Shown: positions 6,079-55,021, numbered from the stretch's first letter. The stretch is 64,000 nt of DNA from a virus (IMGVR_UViG_3300027673_000001:82759-146758); one strand, 5' to 3'. Program-made: numbers and translations. The notes: generated by a model not told the origin, from the letters alone.

Positions 6079-6252
6079 TCAACGACCATATAGAATGCTG
6101 TCCTTCTTGTTTAGGGGCACGCGATGTTTCGGGTGGAGGAGCCACTTCTCACCCATCTTCATGATGGTTTCCTTGGCTCGTTCCTCATTACGTTTCTTGA
6201 TTTCTTCGAGCTCTTGTTCGAGGGTTGATTTGGAGTTGGTTTGAACAATCAT
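6079..6252 (-). CDS. small hypothetical early protein (57 aa, below ORF-track cutoff)
   Basis: ATG at 6252 preceded by AAAGGA RBS and TTGACA-N17-TACAAT promoter; MIVQTNSKSTLEQELEEIKKRNEERAKE.. Confidence 0.35.
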   Translation of the reverse strand: MIVQTNSKSTLEQELEEIKKRNEERAKETIMKMGEKWLLHPKHRVPLNKKDSILYGR

Positions 6253-6275: not shown

Positions 6276-6304
6276 ATTGTAACATGAACATGAATAAATG
6301 TCAA
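6276..6304 (-). promoter_or_regulatory. sigma70-like early promoter (TTGACA-N17-TACAAT)
   Basis: Reverse complement reads GTTGACATTTATTCATGTTCATGTTACAAT immediately upstream of the 6252 start; lies at the edge of conserved 125-bp element copy A. Confidence 0.55.
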
Positions 6305-6430
6305 CAACCGCCAGATAGACGACAGGGGTGTTGCGTTGGTGTTTTGTGTGCCAGTACCCGTTAAGGGGTTCTAGAGCAAAATCGCACGTCTTGGGGTCAA
6401 TAAAATCAATGACTTAGGAGTGCATTTAGG
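6295..6430. repeat. conserved ~125-bp non-coding element, copy A of 3
   Basis: Near-identical to 31011..31149 and 45859..45988 (..CCAGATAGACGACAGGGGTGTTGCGTTGGTGTTTTGTGTGCCAGTACCCGTT..AAATCGCACGTCTTGGGGTCAATAAAATCAATGACTTAGGAG). Confidence 0.8.
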
Positions 6431-6956
6431 GGTTAGAAATGCCCTTTGGGACGTCAAACACAAAAGTGACCCTATCCACTTCGCCTATGTTTAGGGCCGT
6501 GTGGGGCTTCTTGTTGTCAAACCAAAAGAATGTGCCAGGCTCAATGACGTGAGCCTCGCCGTCTACTTCATAACGATACCTACCAGCAAGGGAGAAGTGG
6601 TAACGGTCCCTGGTGAGATAGTACTTGCCTTCATCTATGTGTAGACCTACTGAGTGTCCAGGCAGAAGCCTAAAGAAGGCAGCTCTTGAATGATTGTTGA
6701 CTTTGTTCTCTCTAAGCCATGCGTTGAGCCTCGGGAACAAAATCCTGGCCGGGGTGTCTCCTTGATGCTCGGAGTCCTTGATGTCCACGGCACCATATTG
6801 GATACCCATTGTGAGTGGTAAAAAACCATAGGGGTTTTGAATTCCGCCTATGTTTGACATCTGACTAACCATACCCCAGAGGTCCTTGTTTTGTTCAAGT
6901 TCCTCTAGGAATGGTTGAGTGTTTATGCCTGTCTTTATGAAACGAAAGTTGCTCAT
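6426..6956 (-). CDS. cupin-fold oxygenase-like protein (Asp/Asn beta-hydroxylase-like)
   Basis: 176 aa; H-x-D ... H arrangement (LHIDEG ... PHTALN) typical of cupin 2OG/Fe oxygenases; family assignment from motif only. Confidence 0.4.
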   Translation of the reverse strand: MSNFRFIKTGINTQPFLEELEQNKDLWGMVSQMSNIGGIQNPYGFLPLTMGIQYGAVDIKDSEHQGDTPARILFPRLNAWLRENKVNNHSRAAFFRLLPGHSVGLHIDEGKYYLTRDRYHFSLAGRYRYEVDGEAHVIEPGTFFWFDNKKPHTALNIGEVDRVTFVFDVPKGISNP

Positions 6957-14223: not shown

Positions 14224-14526
14224 TCACTTGATGATGAACTGCACGACAGAGCAGTCCTTGTTATAGACACCGGATGCCCAGTCATAGGACCCTTCGTGCT
14301 CCTGCCGCCCCATCAGTACTGCGTAATCACTCTTCAGCAGGACAATCGAAGCGACGTCATCTGCCACTTCGATGGGAGAGGAGACCTGTATCCACCACAC
14401 ACCCTTCTCATCCTTGCTGAAGTCATCGAGCTCCGCATGGGGAATGTTCTTTGTGAGCTTCTCAACAGCCTTCCGAATCTTGGCTACTTCCTTCTCTTCC
14501 CGCTTCGCTACATTGACCATTGCCAT
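14224..14526 (-). CDS. hypothetical early protein
   Basis: 100 aa; consensus early promoter + AGGAG RBS upstream. Confidence 0.45.
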   Translation of the reverse strand: MAMVNVAKREEKEVAKIRKAVEKLTKNIPHAELDDFSKDEKGVWWIQVSSPIEVADDVASIVLLKSDYAVLMGRQEHEGSYDWASGVYNKDCSVVQFIIK

Positions 14527-14548
14527 CTTCTTCTCCTAGTATGCTACT

Positions 14549-14577
14549 ATTATAGCACAGAGGGGATTAAAATTCAA
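14549..14577 (-). promoter_or_regulatory. consensus early promoter TTGAAT-N17-TATAAT
   Basis: Reverse strand TTGAATTTTAATCCCCTCTGTGCTATAAT, then AGGAG RBS and ATG at 14526. Confidence 0.65.
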
Positions 14578-16668: not shown

Positions 16669-16829
16669 GCCTTTCCGTGGTGGCGCTTGTTCTCACGGAT
16701 TGCATTCTTGACAGTCAAGTTGGTCTCGTATGCCGCGCGGCGCATCTCCTGGAAGAACACCATGGCCCACAGTAACGGGATAAGGAAGAGATTCAGGACA
16801 TAGGAGATGTTGTTCTTGACTTTGTTCAT
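16665..16829 (-). CDS. small membrane protein
   Basis: Start at MNKVKNN (16829) with AAGAGG RBS. Confidence 0.4.
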   Translation of the reverse strand: MNKVKNNISYVLNLFLIPLLWAMVFFQEMRRAAYETNLTVKNAIRENKRHHGKA

Positions 16830-16993
16830 TTCGTGTACCTCTTGTTTCGCTATGTCTCTATTATAAGGCAGAGTTGAATAAAATTCAAGAATTATCAATG
16901 GTGAGAGTACTGGTAGCTCCCCAGCTGGTGCCGCTCTTAAAAGACCTATACACTTGGTCCTGGACGTATGGCTCCATGGGACCGTCCACTGTA

Positions 16994-25389: not shown

Positions 25390-25828
25390 CGTCGTTCCTT
25401 GTTTCCTTAGTGACGTCTATCTTTGTCCTGGCGGCATCCCATTTAGCCAGAACTGCTTCGCCGCCAGGGAGCTCTTTCAACCCTTCAATCAGGATATTGG
25501 TGCAGGGGTGGTATGTGGGTTTGGCTTCCAAAGGTTTTGGGAGAGGGATGGGTTTAGTGTAGACCATACGGGAACCAAGATGGGGTTCAATCAGTAGTTT
25601 TTCATAAAGATCTTTGTCGACATCAACCCAGGAAAGAGATGGATCTAGAGGATTCAGTACGCAAACTTGATACACTGGTTCCTGTCCCGCCAGCATCTCC
25701 CGCCACTGCTGGTCGCGTAGGTCGGCTATGGAGTGGGCAATGTACATTCCGCAGTTGTAGCTGTGCTTCTGCATAATTGCGTCACACACCTCATCTATCT
25801 TTTCTTCTGTGAGCTTCGGCGGGGTCAT
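25382..25828 (-). CDS. hypothetical protein (paralogue of 24577..25005)
   Basis: 148-aa ORF. Confidence 0.4.
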   Translation of the reverse strand: MTPPKLTEEKIDEVCDAIMQKHSYNCGMYIAHSIADLRDQQWREMLAGQEPVYQVCVLNPLDPSLSWVDVDKDLYEKLLIEPHLGSRMVYTKPIPLPKPLEAKPTYHPCTNILIEGLKELPGGEAVLAKWDAARTKIDVTKETRNDDE

Positions 25829-26790
25829 GCTGCACCCCCGTTCTTCTCGCGGAGCTTGGCTTCGATGATGTGATAGATCATTTGCGCGGCACCCATCTGT
25901 ACACCAGCCTGCAAAGCAGCGTCATATATCTCGCTGTATTCAAACCCCACCCACTCCCGCTGGGCTGTGGGCTGGGGTGCGGCGTTGAGCAGGGCATCAA
26001 TCATCATGTCGCGCAGCGAACCCTTACTGGCGACTGGCACCCGCGCCTCTTGGGCTGGGGGCTGGGGTGCGGCTGTCGCTGGTTTTCCGCAGTGCGGGCA
26101 GTGGGAAACCCAAAGCTCCACATCGTTTTGCAGCAGTGCAGCGCAGTCGTGTTGCCACTTGGACGTCGTCCAGCTTACTTTGACTTCTTGGGCTGGGGGC
26201 TCGGGTGCGCTGGCACTCAGATGCTGGTCGTCCTCTGCTGCCACGAGCGCAACCCACCGCCCGTCAAGCTCTTTCCAGTTCCAAAAGCAATTGACCCTGC
26301 CAGCATCATCTAAGCTCAGTTTGAACCGTGTGCCGTTAGCCAGATACTGCACAGGCACCCGCGCCTCTTGGGCTGGGGGCTGGGGTGAGAATTTCTTGCA
26401 GGGAAACGGAAGAACATCTTCATGAACCAATTCTGCGGCGCTGGCATTATCAAGCGCCTTGATTACAGACTCGTCATCGAACCGACCTGCCTCTTGCGCA
26501 AGTACCCCAATGACTTGGTAGCATTCAGCCAAGATGCGTGTCAGGTGCTGGTCTTGAGGCTTGGATGTTATATTGGCGCGACAGCAATTAGACGTTTCAC
26601 ACCCGGCTGGCGACCCACAATGACCTAGTACGCAATTGCCATCCCACGTCACCGACACCCGCGCACTCAGCGCCTGCTCTATGGCGGCGCGGAGGGCATC
26701 CATTGCCGCATCGTGCTCTTTCCACCGCGGTGGCCCGAAGGTCGCGCAGGCGTGCTCTGCCAACTCCATGATTCGATCTACTTCAGTCAT
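25825..26790 (-). CDS. GC-rich Cys-containing protein with repeated PQPPAQEARVPV linker motifs
   Basis: 321-aa ORF; visibly higher GC than neighbours; ~35-bp DNA direct repeats (TCTTGGGCTGGGGGCTGGGGTG) encode the repeated peptide; + strand ORFs here are GC artefacts. Confidence 0.45.
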   Translation of the reverse strand: MTEVDRIMELAEHACATFGPPRWKEHDAAMDALRAAIEQALSARVSVTWDGNCVLGHCGSPAGCETSNCCRANITSKPQDQHLTRILAECYQVIGVLAQEAGRFDDESVIKALDNASAAELVHEDVLPFPCKKFSPQPPAQEARVPVQYLANGTRFKLSLDDAGRVNCFWNWKELDGRWVALVAAEDDQHLSASAPEPPAQEVKVSWTTSKWQHDCAALLQNDVELWVSHCPHCGKPATAAPQPPAQEARVPVASKGSLRDMMIDALLNAAPQPTAQREWVGFEYSEIYDAALQAGVQMGAAQMIYHIIEAKLREKNGGAA

Positions 26791-27421: not shown

Positions 27422-27685
27422 TTAGAATGTGTCAAAGATAACCATGTGGTCGACGGTCTTCATATCAAAAACGGGGCGGTATATCATCTGCATTCCGTCC
27501 CATTGGTCCTGACAGAACAAAGGGTCTCCTGGCTGTACTGGGATGAACTTTACTCTGGCTCCAGTGACGTGGCTCTCAACTTCAAAAGAAGGAGGCTTGC
27601 CAAAGTACTCACTGGAAAGTGTCAGCTTCTTCTTTTGCTTGTCGTAATCACAAAGTTTCAAGGAAACCAAATATTCCTTTTTCAT
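27422..27685 (-). CDS. hypothetical protein
   Basis: 87-aa ORF; promoter-like element at ~27690-27740. Confidence 0.4.
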   Translation of the reverse strand: MKKEYLVSLKLCDYDKQKKKLTLSSEYFGKPPSFEVESHVTGARVKFIPVQPGDPLFCQDQWDGMQMIYRPVFDMKTVDHMVIFDTF

Positions 27686-27828
27686 CTACAACTCCTTGTG
27701 CTATGCCTTAGTATAGCACAGAGCTGAATAAATTTCAAGCACTTGTGACTCTATATGCCCTGGACCAAAGGTCGATTCTAAAGAACCACCTATAGTTGTT
27801 CATCCCAAAACCTATTCGAATCATTCGA

Positions 27829-29225: not shown

Positions 29226-29471
29226 TCAACTGACTTCAGGCCCTTCTATGTTGTACCGACCCCCGCACTTTGAGCAGTATGACCAGCTCCAACCTATTCC
29301 GTTGTCGTGTGAGGAACCAAATCTGTGACCTTCTTCGCTTTCTCCACACTCCCTTTGGAGGGCGAGCTTCGCAGGTAAGTAGACATTCTTGTCATACTGT
29401 TCAGTGGCTTGGCTATGGAACTCACGCCTCTCTTTTTCCAGCTGCCTGTACCTTTCCCATATGGTATTCAT
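29226..29471 (-). CDS. hypothetical Zn-ribbon protein
   Basis: CSKCGGRY motif. Confidence 0.35.
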   Translation of the reverse strand: MNTIWERYRQLEKERREFHSQATEQYDKNVYLPAKLALQRECGESEEGHRFGSSHDNGIGWSWSYCSKCGGRYNIEGPEVS

Positions 29472-29833
29472 TGAGAGACCTTATTCATATTCCTTGGACA
29501 CGAAACAGAACCACAAGCATGGTTAGGTCCTTGCCCACAGGCGGGACAGAGCCAAAAATTTTGCGGTGGTTTTGGCTCCACCGGCTTGAAGGGGTTGATC
29601 TCTGGCCAACGTGGGGGTTTTGGTGCTAGAGGTCCGGAGGGGTTGATTTCTGGCCAACGTGGGGGTTTTGGTGCTAGAGGTCCGGAGGGGTTGATCTCTG
29701 GCCAGCGCGGCGCATTTGGTTGCGTACCTATAGGACCTATAGGAAGGAGATTGTTTTCCAAATACCTGATTCGCCTTGATAGTTCCTCTATCTGCGCTTC
29801 AAGTCTTTTGATGAGTTTTTCTTGATCCTGCAT
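29468..29833 (-). CDS. protein with N-terminal coiled coil, tandem PRWPEINPSGPLAPKP repeats and C-terminal Cys cluster
   Basis: 121 aa; 48-bp tandem DNA repeat x~2.7 at 29583..29720 encodes the peptide repeat; CPACG...CGSVSCP at C-terminus. Confidence 0.45.
   Translation of the reverse strand: MQDQEKLIKRLEAQIEELSRRIRYLENNLLPIGPIGTQPNAPRWPEINPSGPLAPKPPRWPEINPSGPLAPKPPRWPEINPFKPVEPKPPQNFWLCPACGQGPNHACGSVSCPRNMNKVSQ
29583..29720. repeat. 48-bp tandem repeat (~2.7 copies) inside CDS
   Basis: GGGGTTGATCTCTGGCCAACGTGGGGGTTTTGGTGCTAGAGGTCCGGA repeated head-to-tail. Confidence 0.8.
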
Positions 29834-29840: not shown

Positions 29841-30968
29841 TCAAAAAGCTGCCCAGTTGAATTTCTTGCGTTCCTTCCTCTGGAGGATCAGGTAGTCGCC
29901 GTTGGTTTTCTCGAACTTCAAGTATCCCTTGTCAAAGTCAACAGAAGTGAGTTCCTCAACCTCATAGGAGGCGTGACACCAAATGTACTCAGCATCTTCC
30001 TCGTCGATGCCCAATGCCTGGGGAGTTTGTTCTTTCTTCTTTGACTTCTTGTCGTTCTTAACACGGAAGCTGAAGCTGAACCCTTCGTTGAATGGGTTGA
30101 TGTCCTCGATTTCCAGGAAGTCCTTGTGGAGTTGGCTGATGCTGATATTATTTCCGTTATGCTTTATCATAACGATAGTGAAGGAGCTGTCGCTGTTCCC
30201 GGTGGGTTTGGTGTTCAGCATGGAAACCAGAGTTTTGGGCGACTCGTTGTATCGGTTCACTTCCTCAACCATGGCCTTGAGCATATCGAAGTTGAATGTG
30301 TCAAACACCGCAGACAGCCTCAGAATCTCCTCGGTGAAGTTTTTGTAGATGAGATTGTCCTCGCAGTATTCCCTGATGAATGCCTTGTCCAGCCCTTCAT
30401 ACTCTATCATGTAGAAGATGCGCCCAGGGCGATTCTTCATGTGGCTGTTCACACGGTAGGTGTCGTTGCAAGTCAACACAAAGAGCTTCTTGCTTGGGTA
30501 GACGCCGTCCAGGAGAGTCAAAAGAAGTTCCTGGTCATCTTTGTCATAAACCTTCTCGAACTCATCAAAGATGACAATCGCAGGTTGGTTGATTTGCTGG
30601 ATGAACTTGTTGAAGGAATCACCACACCAAGCATTGTTGATAACGATGGTTGGAATTCCTTTGGAGATACCTTGTATGGAGAGGTTCTTGGCCAAGAGAC
30701 TCTTGCCGCTACCCTTTTCTCCAGCAAGCAAAACACCAGTAGATGCAGCACGGGAATCAAATGTAGTCAAGATTCTGTCGGTATGCTTTTGGGTTTCACC
30801 GTACAGTTTACCCACGGGCTTGAACGCCTCGATGGGCTTAAGGAAGAACTCCTTAGTCATCGCATCCATATCAACGGTGTAGTTCCCAACAGGGAGCGCA
30901 TCGTGCATGTTCAATGCGTTGTGGGTTGTAACGAAAAAGTTCTCGCCGCGCTTCAGAAAAATGCTCAT
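29841..30968 (-). CDS. P-loop AAA-type ATPase
   Basis: Walker A GEKGSGKS, Walker B IVIFDEFEK; antisense 301-aa + ORF rejected. Confidence 0.6.
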   Translation of the reverse strand: MSIFLKRGENFFVTTHNALNMHDALPVGNYTVDMDAMTKEFFLKPIEAFKPVGKLYGETQKHTDRILTTFDSRAASTGVLLAGEKGSGKSLLAKNLSIQGISKGIPTIVINNAWCGDSFNKFIQQINQPAIVIFDEFEKVYDKDDQELLLTLLDGVYPSKKLFVLTCNDTYRVNSHMKNRPGRIFYMIEYEGLDKAFIREYCEDNLIYKNFTEEILRLSAVFDTFNFDMLKAMVEEVNRYNESPKTLVSMLNTKPTGNSDSSFTIVMIKHNGNNISISQLHKDFLEIEDINPFNEGFSFSFRVKNDKKSKKKEQTPQALGIDEEDAEYIWCHASYEVEELTSVDFDKGYLKFEKTNGDYLILQRKERKKFNWAAF

Positions 30969-30992: not shown

Positions 30993-31021
30993 ATTCTACT
31001 AGAGAAGGGTTTAAATGTCAA
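30993..31021 (-). promoter_or_regulatory. sigma70-like early promoter TTGACA-N17-TAGAAT
   Basis: Reverse strand CATTGACATTTAAACCCTTCTCTAGTAGAAT upstream of ATPase start. Confidence 0.55.
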
Positions 31022-31149
31022 TGTTTGGTAGATAGACGACAGGGGTGTTGCGTTGGTGTTTTGTGTGCCAGTACCCGTTAAGGGGTTCTAGGGCAAAATC
31101 GCACGTCTTGGGGTCAATAAAATCAACGACTTAGGAGTGCATTTAGGGG
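31011..31149. repeat. conserved ~125-bp non-coding element, copy B of 3
   Basis: Near-identical to 6295..6430 (one or two substitutions). Confidence 0.8.
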
Positions 31150-31160: not shown

Positions 31161-31355
31161 TCAAATCCAGTCTTGGCTAAGATGTTTGCCATCTTCCTTA
31201 ACCATGACGGGCATTCCTTGCTCGTCTTTCTTGACTTTTATTCCCTCAAACCTGAGAACCTTCGCGCATGCCAGTTCAGAAGTCTCGGCGGGAACCCAGA
31301 AGTGCGTTTTGCCTTCCTTAGTGGGGGTTTCATACTCAAAAAGAAAGAGTTTCAT
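31161..31355 (-). CDS. hypothetical protein
   Basis: 64-aa ORF. Confidence 0.35.
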   Translation of the reverse strand: MKLFLFEYETPTKEGKTHFWVPAETSELACAKVLRFEGIKVKKDEQGMPVMVKEDGKHLSQDWI

Positions 31356-34510: not shown

Positions 34511-35772
34511 CAGAAAAAGTCCTCTAGGTCGGTTGGTTTGCCGCTTTGAACTCTCTTGCTTTTCACCCTTCTGGAGAAGTGTCCTAGCCAGATGTCAAAG
34601 TCGCCTTTGCTCTTCACATTATACAGAGCCTTCGCCGGATTGTAAAATTCAGCATCGATGGCTAGTTGAAGCATATTCTCTCTGCTCTCCATCATCCAGT
34701 CAACGTGCTCAATGTAGTTCATTATTGATTTGACAGTAAAGGCAGTCCTTGCCCTAAGGAAGTCAAAGTCCTCTCCACCCTGATCAATATACTTTGTGTA
34801 CCCTGTGTTCATAATCTTGTGGAACTTATGGGCATCAAGGCCAGCCATGTCGCATATTGTGCTGATGTCCTCAAATGTCGCTTCGTAGAACTTCGACATC
34901 TTTCTATCAAAAGCTACCTGTTTCCTGTTCTTGGTGTAGTAAAGCCCAAGCTCAACACCACTGGTGTGAGTTGTGCTATCGTATGACATAGTTAGAGATT
35001 CGTCATACAGACCAGATTGTTTGAATATCAAGTAGGGTAGCATCCTCTTGGCTGAGCCTACACCCAGGACGTGGAGATGTTTCTTTTCCATTTGCAGTTG
35101 GGAGAATATGAAAGCTCTTTCGATATCTTCCAACGTGCCTGTACCAAGAGCAGCAGCACCCATAGCCACTGCCGTAACCTCTCCCTTATCTTCATAGGGG
35201 ATTTGTTCAAGGACAATGTCAACCCACTTCATGTAAGTGTCATAACAGTTTCCTTGAGCGATAAGAATAGGCTTGCACTCGGACTTTTGCTCTCTATAGA
35301 CGTGAATCTGCCTGGCGATGTTCTTCCCGGTGAGCTTGGCGTAATGTTCCATCTCGTCGGGTTTGAACCAACGATTAGTCACATCGTTCCTGCCAGACGT
35401 CTTACCCTGAGTGCCGATTGGTATTTCATCAAAGCACATACCAAAGTCTGCAGAAGCGCATTGGTTCCTATAGATATCGTCCTTGATTTCGTCCGTTACA
35501 GCCTTGCCTTGAGTGATAATCTGAAGACCACCACTGTCAGCATGAATGCTATGGTACCCATCTAGTTTCCTAAACCTCGGACCAAAGGATTGCTCAGTGA
35601 ATCCATTGAATAACAAACCAAACTCATGGTTAGGCGAGGATTTTGCAATCTTCGACAGAAGTTCAGAGATGAATGGCCCATTAACGGGGTCACCGGCATT
35701 GCGTGGCGAATGAAGCCTCATGTAGCTAGTACCTGAGGCGATGTATTCTATTTTCTTATCCGAAGAAAGCAT
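34510..35772 (-). CDS. dpdA: DpdA / tRNA-guanine transglycosylase-family DNA transglycosylase
   Basis: 420 aa with TGT-family DSGG(F/L)Q motif (HADSGGLQII); sits in cluster with FolE/QueD/QueE. Confidence 0.6.
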   Translation of the reverse strand: MLSSDKKIEYIASGTSYMRLHSPRNAGDPVNGPFISELLSKIAKSSPNHEFGLLFNGFTEQSFGPRFRKLDGYHSIHADSGGLQIITQGKAVTDEIKDDIYRNQCASADFGMCFDEIPIGTQGKTSGRNDVTNRWFKPDEMEHYAKLTGKNIARQIHVYREQKSECKPILIAQGNCYDTYMKWVDIVLEQIPYEDKGEVTAVAMGAAALGTGTLEDIERAFIFSQLQMEKKHLHVLGVGSAKRMLPYLIFKQSGLYDESLTMSYDSTTHTSGVELGLYYTKNRKQVAFDRKMSKFYEATFEDISTICDMAGLDAHKFHKIMNTGYTKYIDQGGEDFDFLRARTAFTVKSIMNYIEHVDWMMESRENMLQLAIDAEFYNPAKALYNVKSKGDFDIWLGHFSRRVKSKRVQSGKPTDLEDFF

Positions 35773-40434: not shown

Positions 40435-40464
40435 CTCCTGTTTAACTTGTTTCGCTATGTTTCT

Positions 40465-40493
40465 ATTATAGCACAGTCTTGAATAAAATTCAA
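40465..40493 (-). promoter_or_regulatory. consensus early promoter TTGAAT-N17-TATAAT
   Basis: ctattatagcacagtcttgaataaaattcaa. Confidence 0.6.
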
Positions 40494-40582
40494 ACTTTGT
40501 TGCGCCCTAAAAGTGCTTAAATTTCAGGCATTTAGGGAGTTTCAAACACAGAAAACAAGTGTAACAGAAGCCAGATTAAATG

Positions 40583-40996
40583 TCAAGGGTGAAGAACCTC
40601 TCCAGCAAAGACCTGGAATCGGTCACGCATCTCTTGCATTTTATTCTCAGGTACGTTATGAATGCTACCAAAGTGGCTAGTCATCCTGAAGACCTTCAAG
40701 GCGTGGTTGTTTTCCCGACAATAGTCAACATATGGTTTCATTTCCTTGAAAGTGGTAAAGGTATTAGAAACCACAACCAACTTACCAGCATCAAGGGATT
40801 CCGTAACACTGACGAAGCACTTGGAGTGAGCATAGTGAAGCCTCGAGGCTAGAAACTCATACTCACCTTTATCGTTTACCATGAACTGGTCAGCCTCAAA
40901 GTGAGCAGAATTTTCAACATCACGGAGAATATGCTTCGCTAAGGTAGACTTGCCGGACCCAGGCAACCCCCTGATAATGATAAGACCTTTTTCCAT
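40583..40996 (-). CDS. P-loop polynucleotide-kinase-like NTPase
   Basis: Walker A GLPGSGKSTLAK at N-terminus, 137 aa; resembles kinase module of Pnkp enzymes. Confidence 0.5.
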   Translation of the reverse strand: MEKGLIIIRGLPGSGKSTLAKHILRDVENSAHFEADQFMVNDKGEYEFLASRLHYAHSKCFVSVTESLDAGKLVVVSNTFTTFKEMKPYVDYCRENNHALKVFRMTSHFGSIHNVPENKMQEMRDRFQVFAGEVLHP

Positions 40997-44978: not shown

Positions 44979-45440
44979 GCGATCCGCACAGATAGAAGCT
45001 GCCCAGGAGTTTGGCTTAACCACAGGGTCAAGACCACAAACCCCCTTGATGTATCCAACAGCTTCACCAAGGGCGCAGGAGCTTCCATGGATTTCCAAGG
45101 GGTTGATATCCAAGTGAAGCTCAACGTGTCGCTTCTCGAGATCGACAGCTTCGGACACCTTCAAGTACAGTTCGGCGATTTTCATCACCTCTGTCATCAA
45201 ACGCATCTTTGGTCGATCTAGGTTGCGATCATAGTCTCGCTCCCTTTGTACCTCACCGAACACTTTTGCTCCGTGCTTTCCGTCTATATGGACAGCCACG
45301 ATAAGCAAGTAGTCGACCATCCAAACCCCATCAACATTCACACGCTCGGAGTCCGCACCAAAGTAAATCTTTGTTTCCGCAGATTGTGATTCGATGTATG
45401 ACTTCAGTGTTTCGATGTCGATGGTGATTTGCCGTGCCAT
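44964..45440 (-). CDS. hypothetical protein
   Basis: 158-aa ORF. Confidence 0.4.
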   Translation of the reverse strand: MARQITIDIETLKSYIESQSAETKIYFGADSERVNVDGVWMVDYLLIVAVHIDGKHGAKVFGEVQRERDYDRNLDRPKMRLMTEVMKIAELYLKVSEAVDLEKRHVELHLDINPLEIHGSSCALGEAVGYIKGVCGLDPVVKPNSWAASICADRLKTL

Positions 45441-45700: not shown

Positions 45701-45814
45701 TTACTCCTTGTTGAAAACCATAAAGATAATGCCCACCATGATGAATAGGCACAAAACCAGAATCATGTCGTTCCACATGCCGTCCATGGAGACCCAAGCA
45801 AAAAGTTCAGTCAT
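45701..45814 (-). CDS. very small membrane protein (37 aa)
   Basis: ATG 45814 with AAAGGAA RBS; hydrophobic MTELFAWVSMDGMWNDMILVLCLFIMVGIIFMVF. Confidence 0.3.
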   Translation of the reverse strand: MTELFAWVSMDGMWNDMILVLCLFIMVGIIFMVFNKE

Positions 45815-45840: not shown

Positions 45841-45869
45841 AGTATAAGAGTTCTATGATTAAATGTCAA
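45841..45869 (-). promoter_or_regulatory. sigma70-like early promoter TTGACA-N17-TATACT
   Basis: Reverse strand GTTGACATTTAATCATAGAACTCTTATACT. Confidence 0.5.
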
Positions 45870-45988
45870 CATCCGCCAGATAGACGACAGGGGCGTTGCG
45901 TTGGTGTTTTGTGTGCCAGTACCCGTTTAGATGAATCTAGCTGAAATCGCACGTCTTGGAGTCAATAAAATCAATGACTTAGGAGCCA
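45859..45988. repeat. conserved ~125-bp non-coding element, copy C of 3 (central segment diverged)
   Basis: Flanks identical to copies A and B; central ~20 nt replaced. Confidence 0.75.
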
Positions 45989-46013
45989 CAAAAAAGGCTG
46001 GATCGTGCCAGCC
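45987..46013 (-). terminator. rho-independent terminator
   Basis: Hairpin GGCTGG-ATCGTG-CCAGCC with T-run on minus strand, just 3' of gene 46033..46503. Confidence 0.55.
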
Positions 46014-46032
46014 TTTGTTCTTCGAGTAGAGT

Positions 46033-46503
46033 TTACAGTACTCGTCGCTGGTAGATACCATAGTAGTCGAACAATTCCTGGGGCGTCATCTTTTCTGATT
46101 TTGGGATCATCAGACAAGCACCTATGAAAGACACACAGAACCACTTCTTTGGGTTATGTCTTATGAAGCTGAACTGGGAGCCAATGGCACCAAACCAATC
46201 GTATTTCTTACCGTTCTGTCTGTTGCACCAAGCAACAATCTCATCTTCAGTGAAGTCCGTCATAACCTCATAGACTTCCCATCTACCAGAACCATAGTCT
46301 ATGCTTGTTGCCCTAACACCGCCATCCCTGGGCGAAGAGCTCCATGACAAACCAATCTTCGATACTTCGCTAAAGTCATAGACAAGCTCGACGTGTGAGT
46401 ACTTTGAGTTTGTGAAAAAGCAGATGACTCTATCAAGCCATCTTGCTTTTGGGTTGTCTTTTTTTCTACCGTAGTAATAGGCAATGTGAGTTTTGTGTTT
46501 CAT
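46033..46503 (-). CDS. hypothetical protein
   Basis: 156-aa ORF. Confidence 0.4.
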   Translation of the reverse strand: MKHKTHIAYYYGRKKDNPKARWLDRVICFFTNSKYSHVELVYDFSEVSKIGLSWSSSPRDGGVRATSIDYGSGRWEVYEVMTDFTEDEIVAWCNRQNGKKYDWFGAIGSQFSFIRHNPKKWFCVSFIGACLMIPKSEKMTPQELFDYYGIYQRRVL

Positions 46504-47690: not shown

Positions 47691-48469
47691 ACATCAAACG
47701 TCTTCAGTTTGAAGGGGAAGGCTTCAGTGTAGGTTTCATTTGGGTAACCCTTGGGATTCGCCAAAACTCTAGTTTCACACACCATGTAATCCACTGGCTC
47801 GTGCATATGCCCATGAACCCAAACTTTGATGTTGGGGTTATAGCACATGAAGTCCGACAGGTCCGAGGCATAACCCCCGTTCATCTCAAAGTCGTCCTGG
47901 AACTTAGCAGGCACAGATCGAAAAGATGGAGCGTGATGAGTCATCACAACCATGGGTTTGCCTTTCTCGGCTTCCTTCTTCAGGGCCTCGAGAGTGATTG
48001 AGTGTCTGTTCTTTGTGTCCACGGGACGAAGCTTGCGGTAGATGTTGACAACCTTGTCATCGTATGTGATGGCTTGGTAGTCATTCATGTACTGCCCAAC
48101 GGACCAGTTGGTCAACGGGCAGCCCTTGTTGAGGTTGGTCCACAAAGTCCCACCAAACAAGGTAACGTCGCCCAAGTCAACAACCTCATCATTGAGGAAT
48201 GTGATTCCGTGCTTGGCGTATTCTTCTTTCAGTTTTGGCAACGTCTTGTTGAAGTAGCCACCATAGAATTCATGATTACCTGCGACTGCGTAGATGCGAG
48301 GAAATTTGCTTGCCAGATCAGCCAAGAAACCCTGATAGTGGTCCTTGTGCATCTTGTCGCCAATTAGGATGTCGCCAGCGAGAAGTAGAACGTCTGCTTC
48401 TACATCATTCACCAAACGAGTAGAGTGATTGAACTCCATATGGAGATCACTGGCAAAGGCGATTTTCAT
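47687..48469 (-). CDS. calcineurin-like metallophosphoesterase
   Basis: DLHMEF, AGDILIGD, GNHEFY, HHAP motifs. Confidence 0.6.
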   Translation of the reverse strand: MKIAFASDLHMEFNHSTRLVNDVEADVLLLAGDILIGDKMHKDHYQGFLADLASKFPRIYAVAGNHEFYGGYFNKTLPKLKEEYAKHGITFLNDEVVDLGDVTLFGGTLWTNLNKGCPLTNWSVGQYMNDYQAITYDDKVVNIYRKLRPVDTKNRHSITLEALKKEAEKGKPMVVMTHHAPSFRSVPAKFQDDFEMNGGYASDLSDFMCYNPNIKVWVHGHMHEPVDYMVCETRVLANPKGYPNETYTEAFPFKLKTFDV

Positions 48470-50295: not shown

Positions 50296-50370
50296 TGGTA
50301 GCGGAGTCCTGGAATCGAACCAGGGACCTGGAGCTTATGAGACTCCCGAGATACCACTTCTCCAACCCGC
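50296..50370 (-). tRNA. tRNA-Met/Ile2 (anticodon CAT)
   Basis: Hand-folded cloverleaf; T-arm GGTTCGATTCC, anticodon loop CTCATAA, 3' CCA encoded. Confidence 0.55.
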
Positions 50371-50376
50371 AACATT

Positions 50377-50452
50377 TGGCGCGCCCAGAAGGATTCAAAC
50401 CTCCGACCCACTGCTTAGGACGCAGCTGCTCTATTCACTGAGCTATGGACGC
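50377..50452 (-). tRNA. tRNA-Arg (anticodon CCT by hand fold)
   Basis: Perfect acceptor GCGTCCA/TGGGCGC, D-arm GCTCAGTGAATAGAGC, loop GTCCTAA. Confidence 0.5.
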
Positions 50453-50459
50453 ATTATAT

Positions 50460-50534
50460 TGGCCTGCCCGGCAGGAATCGAACCCACATTCACGGTGTAG
50501 AAGACCGCTGTATTATCCGTTATACGACGGGCAG
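50460..50534 (-). tRNA. tRNA-Arg (TCT)
   Basis: Acceptor CTGCCCG/CGGGCAG, loop CTTCTAC. Confidence 0.6.
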
Positions 50535-50535
50535 A

Positions 50536-50682
50536 TTATCCTAGTTCACGTTCCTCCATAATGGAGTTCCAAATCTGTTCTACAAAGGAGACAGGTACTC
50601 CGTACTTTTCTGAGATTTCAACATTAGAAGAAACTCCCAGTTCGAGCTCTTCCTTAATATCAAAAACCAGTTCCTTCAACAT
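50536..50682 (-). CDS. small early protein (48 aa)
   Basis: ATG 50682 with TAGGAG RBS after promoter-like element at ~50700-50745; stop abuts tRNA cluster. Confidence 0.3.
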   Translation of the reverse strand: MLKELVFDIKEELELGVSSNVEISEKYGVPVSFVEQIWNSIMEERELG

Positions 50683-50738
50683 ACCATCTCCTAACTGTCT
50701 ATGTATCTATTATAGCACAGTCACGAATAAAAATCTAG

Positions 50739-50815
50739 TGGTGCCCCTTGACAGATTCGAACTGTCACTACAGAGGTTTTGAATCTCTCGCCTCTTCCAA
50801 TTGGGCTAAAGGGGC
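50739..50815 (-). tRNA. tRNA, class I body with anticodon CAA (hand fold; identity uncertain)
   Basis: Acceptor GCCCCTT/AAGGGGC, T-arm GACAGTTCGAATCTGTC, loop TTCAAAA, 5-nt variable loop. Confidence 0.45.
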
Positions 50816-50816
50816 T

Positions 50817-50905
50817 TGGAGGAGAGCGACGGTATCGAACCGTATCCGATTTCTCGAACCACTCGCTTTCCAAGCGAGGGCAATCACCATCATGCATCAC
50901 TCTCC
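50817..50905 (-). tRNA. tRNA-Ser (GGA)
   Basis: Class II, acceptor GGAGAGT/GCTCTCC, loop TTGGAAA, long variable arm. Confidence 0.6.
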
Positions 50906-50906
50906 G

Positions 50907-51179
50907 TTACCAGTTTCTTGGTAGCTTTGCCTTATGGCTAGTATCAACGAGCCAAGCAGTATCAACAAATCCATGTGTGGGTTCCATGGTCTCGGTAAAC
51001 AATTCATAGATCATACTAGCTACAGGCTCAGGAAATCCTTTCCTGCTGTCCCTTCTCTCGTCCATCAACAAGGTGGACAAATAGTTGTTCAAGGCATCCT
51101 TGTTTGACCAAAGGAAGTCTATCCTATCCCTAACGTGGGGATAAGACTCTAAGATGTGAAGGACGTGTTCTTTTTTCAT
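50907..51179 (-). CDS. hypothetical protein embedded in tRNA cluster
   Basis: Internal ATG (51179) used so that it does not overlap tRNA at 51192..51268. Confidence 0.35.
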   Translation of the reverse strand: MKKEHVLHILESYPHVRDRIDFLWSNKDALNNYLSTLLMDERRDSRKGFPEPVASMIYELFTETMEPTHGFVDTAWLVDTSHKAKLPRNW

Positions 51180-51191
51180 CTTGTATGTATG

Positions 51192-51268
51192 TGGTGCGCC
51201 GGGAGGGATTCGAACCCTCACTCGATGGCTTCTAAGGCCATTGCCTCTGCCAATTGGGCTACCAGCGC
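51192..51268 (-). tRNA. tRNA, class I body with anticodon TAG (hand fold; identity uncertain)
   Basis: Acceptor GCGCTGG/CCGGCGC, anticodon stem ATGGC/GCCAT, loop CTTAGAA. Confidence 0.45.
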
Positions 51269-51276
51269 ATTATTCC

Positions 51277-51351
51277 TGGTGGTGATAGTTGGTAACGATC
51301 CAACCTTCTCGGCTTATGAAACCGGCCTACATCCTTCTATAGCATATCACC
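51277..51351 (-). tRNA. tRNA (CAT), third CAU-anticodon tRNA
   Basis: Acceptor GGTGATA/TATCACC, T-arm GTTGGATCGTTACCAAC, loop TTCATAA. Confidence 0.45.
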
Positions 51352-51356
51352 GAAGT

Positions 51357-51431
51357 TGGGCAGACGTTACGGATACGATCCGTTCCTACGAGTGTCACAG
51401 ACTCGGGTGCTTCCACTACACTAAACGCTGC
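51357..51431 (-). tRNA. tRNA-His (GTG)
   Basis: Loop CTGTGAC, D-arm GTGTAGTGGAAGCAC, extra 5' G opposite discriminator C; acceptor has one bulge. Confidence 0.45.
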
Positions 51432-51436
51432 ATAAA

Positions 51437-51511
51437 TGGCATACCAGGAAGGATTCGAACCCTCACTGCAAGGTTTTGGAGACCTGCCGACTGCCGTTGT
51501 CTTACTGGTAT
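51437..51511 (-). tRNA. tRNA-Trp (CCA)
   Basis: Acceptor ATACCAG/CTGGTAT, loop CTCCAAA. Confidence 0.6.
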
Positions 51512-51517
51512 ATAATT

Positions 51518-51593
51518 TGGAGTACGCGGCAGGAGTCAAACCTGCTTGAAGTGGATTTGCAATCCACCGCCTAAGTCGTTCAGCCACGCGCAC
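51518..51593 (-). tRNA. tRNA-Cys (GCA)
   Basis: Anticodon stem GTGGA/TCCAC, loop TTGCAAA. Confidence 0.6.
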
Positions 51594-51647
51594 AAAATGT
51601 TGCACACCACTTATCCTATTATACACCGTGTGCAATGGTGAGTTTCT

Positions 51648-51723
51648 TGGCCCCGCCCTCTGGTAACGATCCAGACCCTCAGCGTTTTCAGCGCCGCGCT
51701 TCCACCTGGTTAGCTTGAGCGGG
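51648..51723 (-). tRNA. tRNA-Phe (GAA)
   Basis: Acceptor CCCGCTC/GGGCGGG, loop CTGAAAA, T-loop ATCGTTA variant. Confidence 0.55.
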
Positions 51724-51730
51724 ATATACT

Positions 51731-51805
51731 TGGTGCGCCCGGAGGGAATTGAACCCCCACTCGATCGATTATGAGTCGACTGCTTTACCATTAAGCTACA
51801 AGCGC
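51731..51805 (-). tRNA. tRNA-Met (CAT)
   Basis: Acceptor GCGCTTG/CGGGCGC, loop CTCATAA. Confidence 0.55.
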
Positions 51806-51812
51806 ATCAATT

Positions 51813-51890
51813 TGGTGGGATCGACGAGATTCGAACTCGTAGTCTGTTGACTCTCATTCAACAAGGTATGCCAATTCCCTTCACGATCCC
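51813..51890 (-). tRNA. tRNA, anticodon GAG by hand fold (identity uncertain)
   Basis: Acceptor GGGATCG/CGATCCC, T-arm ACGAGTTCGAATCTCGT, stem GTTGA/TCAAC loop ATGAGAG. Confidence 0.4.
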
Positions 51891-51896
51891 AAATTT

Positions 51897-51978
51897 CCTA
51901 TATTGAAACACACAGTACAACGTGCGCCCTCTCAGGTCTTAAACAGCGTCCCGTACACGCCTATGCGTTTCAATATAG
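51897..51978. repeat. hairpin element H1 (conserved inverted-repeat termini, variable core)
   Basis: CCTATATTGAAACACACAG ... CTATGCGTTTCAATATAG. Confidence 0.6.
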
Positions 51979-52120
51979 CGACCCATTGTGGGCAGGACTC
52001 GAACCTGCAAGTGGCGTCTATTTCCACCGGCCCTATTAGGGACCTATGTTTACCGTTTCCATCACCACGGGTCATCGGGTTAATTACTCCCGACTACGGA
52101 GACTGATGATCAGTCAATCA

Positions 52121-52208
52121 CCATATAGAAACACACTGACCTCGGAATGACTTATGAGAATACGCGGAGTTCCGATTTAGCGTCTTTCACCAGTGTGTTT
52201 GTATATGG
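52121..52208. repeat. hairpin element H2
   Basis: CCATATAGAAACACACTG ... CAGTGTGTTTGTATATGG. Confidence 0.7.
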
Positions 52209-52324
52209 TATCACCTTTTCCCATACCTTGCGGAGTATATTCGGTATGAGCATCTAGCCGCTCTCACATTACTGTGAGCCTCCCGCTTGACACTTTGATG
52301 ATGCAAAGCCTCTTGGAAACACTA

Positions 52325-52413
52325 CCATATAGAAACACACTCAAACTGGTCTGTTCTCCTACCCCCGTACAGCCGTTCCAGACAGGAGCAAGGTAGAGTG
52401 CGTTTTTATATGG
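52325..52413. repeat. hairpin element H3
   Basis: CCATATAGAAACACACTC ... GAGTGCGTTTTTATATGG. Confidence 0.7.
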
Positions 52414-52516
52414 AATGGTACGCCATCTCACAGCCGACACAAAGAGCCCCACTACTCAACAACTCTGCCGTTACCTAGGTGGGCAGTTTTCCGAGGGTAG
52501 TTTCGTTTGCGTTATA

Positions 52517-52605
52517 CCATATAGAAACACACTAGCCAATACAGATTGATTACTGCGATTGTTCAAATGCCACTCAAATTCGGCAACTAGTGTATTTGTA
52601 TATGG
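52517..52605. repeat. hairpin element H4 (terminal TGG = CCA of tRNA-Lys)
   Basis: CCATATAGAAACACACTAG ... CTAGTGTATTTGTATATGG. Confidence 0.7.
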
Positions 52606-52677
52606 TAGGGGTGGAGAATTTCGAAATCTCGACTCACCGGGTAAAAGCCGGTTACTCTGCCTCTGAGTTACACCCCC
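52603..52677 (-). tRNA. tRNA-Lys (TTT)
   Basis: D-arm GCTCAGAGGCAGAGT, stem ACCGG/CCGGT, loop CTTTTAC; 3' CCA lies inside hairpin element. Confidence 0.6.
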
Positions 52678-52682
52678 AAATA

Positions 52683-52759
52683 TGGTCCCTCGCCTCAGAT
52701 TCGAACTGAGACCTCACGGATTAAGAGTCCGGTACGCTAACCATTAACGCCAGCGAGGG
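52683..52759 (-). tRNA. tRNA (anticodon CTT by hand fold, Lys?)
   Basis: Perfect acceptor CCCTCGC/GCGAGGG, T-arm CTCAGTTCGAATCTGAG, loop CTCTTAA. Confidence 0.45.
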
Positions 52760-52866
52760 AAAGCTCAAGTAAAGATTGTCTTTAGAGTGCTTTCCGGGAC
52801 CATACTTGGGTGGTTCAGGAAAACACTGGTTGTTTACCAGGTTTCATTTCTTTCTCCGTTAAAATT

Positions 52867-52941
52867 TGGTGCCCCTTGACGGAATCGAACCGCCACCCCT
52901 GGATTACAAAACCAGTCCACTGCCATTATGATTAAAAGGGC
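52867..52941 (-). tRNA. tRNA-Thr (TGT)
   Basis: Acceptor GCCCTTT/AAGGGGC, loop TTTGTAA. Confidence 0.55.
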
Positions 52942-52959
52942 TTGTCTTTGTAAGTATCT

Positions 52960-52988
52960 AGTATAGCATACTCACGATTAAAAGTAAA
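52960..52988 (-). promoter_or_regulatory. sigma70-like promoter TTTACT-N17-TATACT inside tRNA cluster
   Basis: Reverse strand CATTTTACTTTTAATCGTGAGTATGCTATACT. Confidence 0.5.
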
Positions 52989-52989
52989 A

Positions 52990-53065
52990 TGGTCTGGGTG
53001 GGGAATTCCGAGATCCCGTCCTCTAGCTTCCAAAGCCAGCCGTCTGCCTCTGACAATACACCCAG
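52990..53065 (-). tRNA. tRNA-Pro (TGG)
   Basis: Acceptor CTGGGTG/CACCCAG, loop TTTGGAA; atypical T-loop. Confidence 0.5.
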
Positions 53066-53071
53066 GTTATA

Positions 53072-53148
53072 TGGCGCCTCCTGAAGGATTTGAACCCTCA
53101 ACCTCTCAGTTCGTAGCCGAGTACTCTTTCCAGTTGAGCTAAGGAGGC
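53072..53148 (-). tRNA. tRNA-Arg (ACG)
   Basis: Acceptor GCCTCCT/AGGAGGC, loop CTACGAA. Confidence 0.6.
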
Positions 53149-53153
53149 ATGAA

Positions 53154-53239
53154 TGGCGGAGAAGAGAGGACTCGAACCTCCACGCCCTTTAGAACGACAG
53201 TTTAGCAAACTGTTGCGGCTACCATTTCGCCACTTCTCC
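53154..53239 (-). tRNA. tRNA-Ser (GCT)
   Basis: Class II, acceptor GGAGAAG/CTTCTCC, loop TTGCTAA. Confidence 0.6.
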
Positions 53240-53244
53240 ATTAT

Positions 53245-53350
53245 AGGCCCACTGTCCTGGAATCGAACCAGGTTAGCCAATCGGACGGAATCGAACCGTC
53301 TCTTCGGGGTGCGCGCAAGGTCCCGGGCGCCAAGCCTACAGTGGATTAAT
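53245..53350 (-). pseudogene. tRNA-like segment with two tandem T-arm motifs (degenerate or unusual tRNA)
   Basis: CCTGGTTCGATTCCAGG and GACGGTTCGATTCCGTC 30 nt apart; complementary acceptor halves CCACTGT/ACAGTGG but ~35 nt too long for a cloverleaf. Confidence 0.3.
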
Positions 53351-53354
53351 CTTT

Positions 53355-53443
53355 TGGCTGAGGAGGTAGGGGTCGAACCTACACGGTCATTACAACCGCC
53401 AGAGTCAAAGTCTGGTGCGTCTAGCCATTTTCGCCACTCCCCA
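53355..53443 (-). tRNA. class II tRNA, Leu/Ser-like body with anticodon TTG by hand fold (identity uncertain)
   Basis: 89 nt; D-arm GCGAAAATGGCTAGACGC, stem CCAGA/TCTGG loop CTTTGAC, long variable stem CGGT..ACCG, discriminator G. Confidence 0.4.
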
Positions 53444-53550
53444 ACAAAACTTACATATATGGTATCAGCGCCACCCCACCTTAGGAAGCCAACCCCTTGA
53501 TACTATCGCCGAGCCAGCGAGGGATCGAACCTCCTGGTCTTATCTGAACA

Positions 53551-53641
53551 CCATATTCAAACTCTCTGCTGCACGCTAAGGCCACTATCACTTACCGCGG
53601 AGTTGTGCGCCGGTCTGCTCCTTCAAAGAGTTTGAATATGG
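53551..53641. repeat. hairpin element H5 (terminal TGG = CCA of tRNA-Pro)
   Basis: CCATATTCAAACTCT ... AGAGTTTGAATATGG. Confidence 0.65.
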
Positions 53642-53717
53642 TCTCGGTAGTGGGATTCGAACTCACGATCTCCTGCTCCCAAAGCAGGCGCTTTAAGCCG
53701 GACTAAGCTACACCGAG
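53639..53717 (-). tRNA. tRNA-Pro (TGG), second copy
   Basis: Stem CCTGC/GCAGG loop TTTGGGA; 3' CCA lies inside hairpin element. Confidence 0.5.
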
Positions 53718-53803
53718 ATTATCTTTACTCATCTATTATTCTCTCGGGCAGTTGCACCCGCCCTTCCCTCTACCAATTGTGCAAACTGTTAGAGGAGTAC
53801 TCT

Positions 53804-53878
53804 TGGTACCTGGTGACGGGATTGAACCGCCGACAGCCTGCTTGTAAGGCAGGAGCTCTACCGCTGAGCTAACCAGGC
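53804..53878 (-). tRNA. tRNA-Val (TAC)
   Basis: Acceptor GCCTGGT/ACCAGGT, loop CTTACAA. Confidence 0.6.
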
Positions 53879-54461
53879 ATTGTTTGGAGCAGGTAGCCAG
53901 TAACGATCTGGTCTATTCAAGTTTGGAAGACTCGCGTGTATCCGTAAACACCTTACCTGCATTATCTTGGTGGAGGCCGTCGGTATCGAACCGATCTAGA
54001 CACGAATCTTGCAAGGATCCGCCGCAGCCCTCTGCTGCCCCCATGAATCTTTCTATACTGAAGAACACTGTAGCTGGACTTTCACCAATCTTATCAGTAC
54101 ACGAATCTTACCAATGCTCTTTAGCATAGTGGAGTGCTGAGAATACACACTTACCGGGCAACACTTCAGACATTATAGTAGGCCTTGCGAGCTTACCTTC
54201 TTCTGACTTCCACTGAGACCTCTTTCGGAGTATCACAGTATGCTACCAACATCGCCGTTTAGAGACAGGCATTAGTCTTGTCGTCATATGCTATTCTACG
54301 CTTTCCTTCCCGTTGACCTTGCGAGCCATTCAAGTGCGCTAACACTTTACGAAACATCCTGCATAAACAGATTTCGCCTTGCGAGCTACGTCTGACTTGA
54401 TTATCTTTCGACTCAAGTATTAGATGTCTTTCACATACGACCGGAGCAGTCTTTGCTTTTT

Positions 54462-54532
54462 GTATAAGGTTGGATTCGAACCAACAGCCTATTCCTTAAC
54501 AGGGAACTGCACTACCATTGTGCTACTTGAAA
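54462..54532 (-). pseudogene. tRNA-Asn(GTT)-like pseudogene
   Basis: Good D-arm GCACAATGGTAGTGC, stem GTTCC/GGAAT loop CTGTTAA, T-arm GTTGGTTCGAATCCAAC, but acceptor stem pairs only 4/7. Confidence 0.3.
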
Positions 54533-55021
54533 CCTACTGCGATGTGCTGCTCCAGTTGCTGCGTAAATTTTTGATCTACACAATACAACACACCACGTAC
54601 CTTTTGCCTTGCGAGCTACTCAGTCGTACTCTGCGATCGGTGTTCCTGCCCAGAAGGCACAGCCCACTAACCACTCATACTGCATTCTAGCCCTTGGCTG
54701 CAAAACCTCGGACACGAACACTACCCTTTCTCATACCTATTGGCTGGTTGGTTTTGCATGGAAGTCAGCACCACCTGTTACTTTTCTCGAACCCCAGTTC
54801 CTTGCGGCTGGTCGGCTCCAGTTCTTTCCCATACACCAGCTTCATAGTTACGTCCCCCGGTCTTATCAAGGAACGCTACCTCGCGGTAGTGAGCAGGCTT
54901 GCGTAAATGAACTATCTCTAGCGGAGTTATGTAGGAATACCTCCTTTGGGTCCTTCACAGGACTTATTCTTCGTAGTGGCGAACCACCACAGGACATTAC
55001 GCTGCCCTTAAAACTTCTTTG

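Follow-up and report, generated by a model that had tools for sequence, protein, structure and literature searches.

Three copies of a 138-nt intergenic element precede predicted early promoters in a T4-like phage genome

In the 64-kb stretch of phage DNA analysed here (the window), a repeat search found one three-member family of 138 nt (D5), all members of which share the same orientation; all genes and promoters near the copies lie on the minus strand. Copy A (6295-6432, minus strand) runs from the stop codon of a 176-aa Asp/Arg-hydroxylase-like ORF (6426-6956) into the -35 box of the next promoter, and a 57-aa ORF (6079-6252) lies downstream of it. Copy B (31012-31149, minus strand) is located between a 64-aa ORF (31161-31355), soon after whose stop codon it begins, and an AAA-ATPase gene (29841-30968). 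Copy C (45860-45997, minus strand), in which the central 22 nt are replaced, is found between the terminator of an ORF at 46033-46503 and a 37-aa ORF (45701-45814) that is membrane-like and followed by an RNase H-like protein. The three downstream genes are unrelated to each other. Using nhmmer with a profile of the three copies, we recovered each of them in the window at E = 1e-45 to 3e-48, and no fourth copy with E < 0.5; sub-motifs of the element recurred elsewhere in the window only as a 14-mer inside a coding region at 29010, which we judged to be a chance match. Both searches bear out an earlier note, made from the same DNA, which had described three near-identical copies in one orientation.

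Read on the minus strand, every copy is followed after exactly 8 nt by a predicted early promoter that matches the sigma-70 consensus at 11 of 12 positions: TTGACA-17-TACAAT with a TG before the -10 box after copy A (6276-6304), TTGACA-17-TAGAAT after copy B (30993-31021) and TTGACA-17-TATACT after copy C (45841-45869), all on the minus strand. The start ATG follows 24-30 nt past the -10 box in all three cases. These promoter matches and the gene context agree with the description of a non-coding element at the boundaries of early units, directly upstream of early promoters. The TTGACA box that had been placed at the 'left edge' of the copies is indeed present, and in the minus-strand reading the copy lies 5' of the promoter. 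Folding detected an intrinsic terminator, AAAGGCUGG-CACGAU-CCAGCCUUU with a U-tract (45990-46016, minus strand), which closes the upstream gene 46033-46503, precedes copy C and lies outside the repeat. The replaced central patch and the hairpin reported for copy C are both real, but the hairpin stands before the element, as the terminator of the upstream gene, rather than after it. No intrinsic terminator was found at copies A and B.

Copies A and B differ at 2 of 120 positions (98% identity), while copy C departs from both by its replaced 22-nt central patch (13 mismatches) plus two to three scattered changes. Copy B has a replaced patch of its own, the 8-nt junction adjoining the -35 box. 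Independent JGI contigs (L088, L081) read through copy A and copy B into unique flanks, so that an assembly artefact can be dismissed. Three contigs, namely the JGI 162.7-kb contig and two Logan contigs, stop within copy A or B (L082 and L083 at their start, L089 at its end); the length of the repeat suffices to break short-read assembly graphs. Homologous recombination is very active in T4-type phages, and the near-identity of the copies, combined with patchy, length-preserving differences, points towards gene conversion among dispersed repeats. The copies probably arose by duplication, and recombination, not sustained selection on each base, has probably kept them alike.

The window belongs to a 162.7-kb circularly closing contig (JGI sample 3300005961), which we assign to a T4-like myovirus as it encodes gp32, gp5, gp25, gp6, gp53, gp2, RNase H, NrdAB, DsbA and a SegE-like endonuclease. 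The RNase H shares at most ~42% identity with that of any cultured phage, the closest being a Synechococcus T4-like phage, and the AAA-ATPase reached a best identity of ~50-61% among 5.8 billion proteins. As judged from sequence comparison, the phage is a deeply divergent T4-like lineage without close relatives. It is clonal (99.98-100% identity) across all samples containing it.

T4-type phages are known to carry PeSLs, modules of ~100 bp that consist of a stem-loop, an AT-rich region, a sigma-70-like early promoter and SD/ATG, and that divide early transcription units in hyperplastic regions of the genome (PMC2839356, PMC4122927). Between close relatives, PeSLs give rise to indels, mini-circles and swaps of genes (Arbiol et al. 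2010, PMC2839356; Comeau et al. 2014, PMC4122927). On its minus strand, the window has about 25 near-consensus sigma-70 promoters, which are grouped in PeSL-like repeat families. Families D1-D7 and D10 (14500-61000, minus strand) extend from the -35 box to the start codon and share C-TTGAAT-TTTATTCAAC...TATAAT-AGAGACATAG..., as exemplified by the repeats at 14524-14577, 16814-16882, 27683-27738 and 40440-40493 (minus strand). Tandem promoter pairs occur at 40455-40600 and 57215-57340 (minus strand), each with a TTGACA-type promoter upstream and a TTGAAT/TTGAAA-type promoter downstream; their -35 boxes are 93 and 76 nt apart, and the short leader of the first promoter crosses the second. Alignment of the element to these tandem-promoter regions (40586/40493 and 57324/57248) was unconvincing.

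Other features of the window lie further from the copies. A full-length GOLLD RNA (54134-54596, minus strand; 216 bits against a gathering score of 150, E = 8e-60) sits in a tRNA cluster and has a tRNA-Asn gene (54461-54532) embedded in it. The cluster comprises 32 tRNA genes at 50300-56165, all on the minus strand, including one ARAGORN call (51984-52071, 'tRNA-???') with an irregular two-base anticodon. The small ORF directly downstream of the AAA-ATPase gene (29468-29833, minus strand) contains three tandem 48-nt repeats (29565-29720), which encode the proline-rich repeat PRWPEINPSGPLAPKP. Four copies of a 37-nt G-rich repeat (family D11, 25943-26387) within a 321-aa ORF (25825-26790, minus strand) suggest, on the level of the predicted reading frame, a repetitive protein. 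A gene for a SegE-like GIY-YIG homing endonuclease is located at ~61.5-62 kb (L092 8946-9350), next to the WYL_2 and DsbA genes; the RNase H region lies downstream of it.

In the direction of transcription, each copy begins with a 16-nt motif identified by short-word and IHF consensus matching. It reads TAAGTCATTGATTTTA in copy A (6401-6416) and copy C (45966-45981), and TAAGTCGTTGATTTTA in copy B (31118-31133), where a single A-to-G change falls on an N position of the IHF consensus (all minus strand). In every copy, the TAA of the motif shares the frame of the upstream stop codon, which would occur by chance in about 1 of 27 cases if the copies were independent. A decayed second motif, AAGACGTGCGATTTT, follows 24 nt after the first (6378-6392, 31095-31109 and 45943-45957, minus strand); its alignment score was equalled by 5-142 of 2000 shuffles. 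Next comes a stem-loop, found by folding, CUAGAACCCC-UUAA-CGGGUACUGG at 6351-6374 and 31068-31091 (minus strand), which in copy C (about 45915-45940, minus strand) has another 5' arm and loop and the same 3' arm. Its predicted free energies are -9.8, -11.1 and -8.1 kcal/mol (z -2.3 to -2.9), and in copy C C-to-U changes preserve G-U pairs in the helix despite the replaced 5' arm. The stem-loop stands ~46 nt ahead of the -35 box and has no U-tract. Then follow, as defined by alignment, a C/A-rich, G-poor spacer, CACACAAAACACCAACGCAACACCCCTGTCGTCTATCT (6313-6350, 31030-31067 and 45878-45915, minus strand), identical in all copies save one A/G difference, and the 8-nt junction to the promoter. 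From the end of the motif to the -35 box there are 96 nt in all three copies, and from the motif to the ATG ~170 nt.

We found nothing to suggest that the element encodes a protein: it contains only short ORFs, which differ between the copies, and a tblastx search against 536 kb of related loci returned nothing below E = 0.3. The copies thus do not appear to be remnant 5' ends of duplicated genes, the outcome that the earlier note had named as speaking against its view.

A small or structured RNA on either strand, be it an sRNA, a nut/put-like antitermination RNA or an RNA processed from a 3' UTR, is very unlikely. It would account for the local stem-loop kept in all copies, in which the G-C to G-U changes work solely on the minus-sense RNA, and for a boxA-like stretch before the stem-loop of copy A, TGCTCTAGA. 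Against it stand the absence, on both strands, of a separate promoter or terminator, folds of the whole element that were no better than shuffles on both strands (z -1.2 to +1.1), and zero compensatory pairs in RNAalifold on both strands. Rfam yielded no family at the element, neither at gathering thresholds over the whole window nor at E <= 10 for copies A and C. Moreover, the boxA-like stretch is exactly what copy C replaces, and in other phages the motif occurs sense as well as antisense to genes, which points to a DNA-level function. The proposal of a small RNA gene, made earlier for this element, therefore finds no support. We also rejected a lambda-type nut site, since its boxA-like part is the segment replaced in copy C, and a long plus-strand pairing (GACGACAGGGG.../...CGCACGTCTTGGGGTC) lacked statistical support.

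The C/A-rich spacer led us to consider a Rho-dependent terminator or insulator, in which the C-rich, G-poor minus-sense RNA would serve as a rut site. Such sites comprise ~70-80 nt of C-rich, G-poor, unstructured and untranslated RNA, and in T4 the early units are known to be separated by Rho-dependent termination. The minus-sense C:G counts of the copies are 36:23, 43:19 and 32:23, a skew at the 96th to 99.7th percentile of the window that opposes the general trend of the genome; the region is untranslated and without strong structure, and an intrinsic terminator is missing from both A and B. On the other hand, rut sites require no exact sequence, a good intrinsic terminator already precedes copy C, and the skew is not extreme. 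We regard this explanation as unlikely; it is compatible with the reading that we favour below.

Searches for relatives of the body of the element were negative wherever we looked. Cultured phages gave no match in blastn, and nhmmer found none in 80 loci of AAA-ATPase relatives and the two closest contigs. Scans for homologues of the ~85-nt body, with three 18-22-nt blocks and a gapped two-block pattern in IMG/VR and with two blocks each in metagenome contigs (evidently without the source samples) and GTDB genomes, returned chance matches only, of 18-21 nt and in coding DNA. That the body has no homologue in the searched data can be explained by the deep divergence of the genome and its lack of close relatives. 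As no homologue points to selection on the body, it could be neutral hitch-hiking sequence. The step from a high level of conservation to function, taken in the earlier note, is weak, since the conservation is paralogous within one clonal genome and only the 16 nt of the motif are found in other phages.

The copies might be a neutral recent duplication in which only the promoter and perhaps the motif are functional, the body having been copied together with a promoter cassette by recombination and being functionless and too young to have diverged. We consider this a possible, though doubtful, explanation. Conservation is confined to paralogues in one clonal population, the body lacks homologues in IMG/VR, JGI metagenome contigs, GTDB genomes and cultured phages alike, the copies differ by replaced patches as is typical of conversion or recombination, and T4-type phages shuffle promoter cassettes in the same way (PMC2839356). 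But why should the spacing to the promoter be exact in three of three copies despite the replacement of 8 nt in copy B or 22 nt in copy C, and why should copy C keep its stem-loop with a different arm? Furthermore, in a T4-like phage proficient in recombination, direct repeats of 120 bp invite deletion, and yet three have been kept.

The motif is the part of the element that reaches beyond this genome. Its complement, AATCAATGACTTA in copies A and C and AATCAACGACTTA in copy B, is an exact fit to the 13-bp IHF consensus WATCAANNNNTTR (PMC7581858, PMC9452768). The same consensus is tabulated under H-NS in PMC6907758, evidently owing to a row swap, and this entry was hence set aside. Only seven matches to the IHF consensus occur in the whole window, and the copies supply three of them. 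Variation among the copies and their relatives falls on the N positions of the consensus, including the sole difference between A and B within the motif. A short-word search of related loci found the exact TAAGTCATTGATTTTA in four T4-like contigs (L041, L043, L056, L067) whose AAA-ATPase is only ~49% identical; in these, the motif directly follows the stop codon of a 761-aa ORF and is followed by a hairpin and a TTGACA promoter. Variants that differ at two positions only, both of them IHF N positions, were present in the same context in L035 (twice), L104, L118, L119, L123 and L205. In the other phages searched, only the motif and not the body is kept.

A scan of IMG/VR for TAAGTYRTTGATTTTA returned at least 120 matches, a raw count within chance expectation, but the surroundings of the sites are not random. 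Among the matches listed, the sites are mostly intergenic and often occur as nearby direct or inverted pairs. Again among the matches listed, a strong sigma-70 promoter follows within 150 nt on the same strand in 35 of 116 sites and is present on the divergent side in 21 of 116, each compared to a background of ~7%. An IHF site spans 30-35 bp and includes an AT-rich 5' domain (PMC7581858); at the position of this domain, +22 to +26, the 126 IMG/VR sites among the matches listed show a T-rich tract in a flank that the search pattern leaves unconstrained. In the window copies, the AT-rich flank is limited to the adjacent AATAAA, followed by CCCC. Inverted motif pairs enclosing 25-70 nt were observed in unrelated IMG/VR contigs (L175 12936-13030; also L153, L199, L176 and L135), and in L108, L143, L177, L209 and L210 the motif abuts tRNA 3' halves in an attP-like architecture. 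Matches in cultured phages were mostly to phages of Proteobacteria. In the literature, the motif string yielded only unrelated primer or siRNA matches.

Among cultured T4-like phages, Stenotrophomonas phage DLP6 (KU682439.2, loci L219-L222), the genome of which has 56% G+C, is the only one with the motif in large number. We found 30 copies of TAAGTCGTTGATTTT (up to two mismatches) in it, arranged in pairs exactly 25 nt apart (for example 45308-45347, 48051-48090 and 34653-34729), and no such pair in other cultured phages. Of 24 promoters of the form TTTACT-16/17-TATAAT, 13 have a motif pair upstream. The gap from the proximal motif to the -35 box measures 11/12, 21/22 or 32 nt, that is, steps of one helical turn, as expected of a protein that has to keep a fixed helical face with respect to RNA polymerase. 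A terminator hairpin lies between motif and promoter, with its T-tract overlapping the -35 box. The paper on DLP6 reports 25 'phage promoters' predicted with PHIRE, 22 of them 'in groups of two' before gene clusters, and its text does not give the consensus (PMC5349666). We take these paired 'phage promoters' to be the motif pairs, which lie upstream of conventional -35/-10 promoters.

Taken together, the fit to the consensus suggests that the motif is probably bound by a host architectural protein, most likely IHF, that would bend the DNA upstream of the promoter. Three observations speak against IHF: the consensus occurs just ~2-fold above scrambled controls in T4-like loci, GT is conserved at two of its 'N' positions and the motif is in this regard stricter than the consensus, and the tandem 25-bp spacing in DLP6 fits poorly with a footprint of 30-35 bp. 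The pair spacing and the additional GT leave room for another binding protein, of host or phage origin. An alternative that we consider improbable is that TAAGTYRTTGATTTTA represents a widespread, unnamed class of sites upstream of phage early promoters, read by a conserved non-IHF host protein or an injected phage protein, with the body as the binding platform of a phage-specific regulator that would join three otherwise unrelated early units into a small regulon. The motif is separated from the promoter by 96 nt here, compared to typically 4-50 nt in other phages and a phased distance in DLP6, and may therefore not act on the adjacent promoter in this genome. Its orientation is sense to the genes here and in the L035/L041 group and mostly antisense in DLP6, which again points towards a DNA-level function.

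As sites of the IHF type are common at att sites and at some origins, and as three dispersed identical copies could be recombination sites, we also considered a replication origin, a site-specific recombination site, a mobile element and a homing-endonuclease target. Inspection of the sequence revealed no iterons, AT-rich unwinding element, terminal inverted repeats or target-site duplications. No copy has an integrase or recombinase gene next to it, three direct sites would delete essential genes, and the nearest homing endonuclease, the SegE-like one, is encoded ~15 kb from the closest copy. Such functions are thus highly improbable, and neither the origin nor the homing target listed in the earlier note gains support; of the functions it offered, the 'boundary element' came closest. 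Ranked by the support that we found for them, the alternatives run from a neutral body through a Rho insulator and an RNA element to an origin, recombination or mobile element.

Several promoter types and sequence elements were tried and rejected. Candidates for a second internal promoter (TTGATT-17-TGCGAT and a TTGACC) lack a usable -10 box. A sigma-54 promoter (consensus GG-N10-GC, TGGCACG-N4-TTGCW) was considered owing to the IHF site and a TGGCAC; TGGCACACAAAACACC fits the -24 box, but the -12 TTGC is missing, with AC where GC is needed. A T4 MotA box, TTTGCTCTA, has no -10 box at the correct distance, and a T4 late promoter, TATAAATA, fails on sequence. The G-runs of a possible G-quadruplex are gone in copy C, and sigma-32 and sigma-E promoters, an integron attC site and a CRISPR-repeat mimic fail on reading the sequence.

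With moderate confidence, we read the copies as a cis-regulatory boundary cassette that would act at the DNA level, in the form of a lengthened T4-type PeSL module. In such a cassette, the motif, followed by its decayed second copy, would be bound by a host architectural protein, likely IHF, that bends the DNA upstream of the promoter. The small stem-loop would come after the motif pair, the C-rich, G-poor unstructured tract could let Rho end read-through from the upstream gene, and 8 nt further on the near-consensus sigma-70 early promoter would restart transcription. Near-identity and patchy mosaic differences would result from duplication and gene conversion by T4-type homologous recombination, and such repeats would in turn be crossover points for the shuffling of modules. 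Against this reading stands the fact that ~25 other strong predicted promoters of the window lack the element, which is carried by only 3 of ~28.

Taken alone, the element is an ordinary outcome of the way in which T4-type phages build and shuffle early units, and changes little. Its main value lies in a sharply defined 16-nt motif that fits the IHF consensus, is common to very distant T4-like phages, is helically phased relative to promoters in DLP6 and is enriched upstream of sigma-70 promoters in unrelated contigs. If the motif is confirmed as a factor site, the 'phage promoters' of DLP6 need re-annotation, early units in uncultured phages gain a simple sequence marker, and a dependence of divergent T4-like phages on host IHF for early transcription becomes testable.

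How does the element relate to known systems? With DLP6 it shares a T4-like genome, the core TAAGTC(G/A)TTGATTTT, a second copy 24-25 nt away and a position upstream of sigma-70-type early promoters. DLP6 differs in that its two copies are intact, lie 11-32 nt from the -35 box and mostly point the opposite way, and are found at no fewer than 13 promoters, whereas the element combines one intact and one decayed motif, 96 nt from the -35 box of three promoters, with a unique ~85-nt body. The repeats were read as promoters in the DLP6 paper; here, they are placed upstream of promoters.

IHF sites precede phage early promoters such as Mu Pe and lambda pL and also occur in the arms of attP. The motif resembles those at Mu Pe and lambda pL as a candidate site with a perfect 13-bp match upstream of a strong predicted early sigma-70 promoter. 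Like IHF sites, it is orientation-independent, and its phasing in DLP6 is as for a DNA-bending protein. Unlike typical IHF sites, it has GT fixed at two N positions, and a tandem spacing of 25 bp is unusual.

The closest likeness is to the PeSLs. As in these, a repeated intergenic module of a T4-type genome lies between a stop codon and the next ORF, a near-perfect predicted sigma-70 early promoter has a small stem-loop before it, though here at ~46 nt rather than just upstream, similar copies flank small ORFs without annotated function, and homology stops within the promoter region, where PeSL crossovers were mapped. The differences concern the architecture upstream of the promoter. PeSLs have an AT-rich region between stem-loop and promoter, the element a C/A-rich spacer; its homology lies upstream of the -35 box, while that of PeSLs extends from the -35 box to the ATG; and the block before its promoter (motif, decayed motif, stem-loop without U-tract, spacer) comprises ~105 nt on its own, compared to a total of ~100 bp for a PeSL. 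The element is therefore best read as a longer form of a known phage promoter cassette and no new kind of element.
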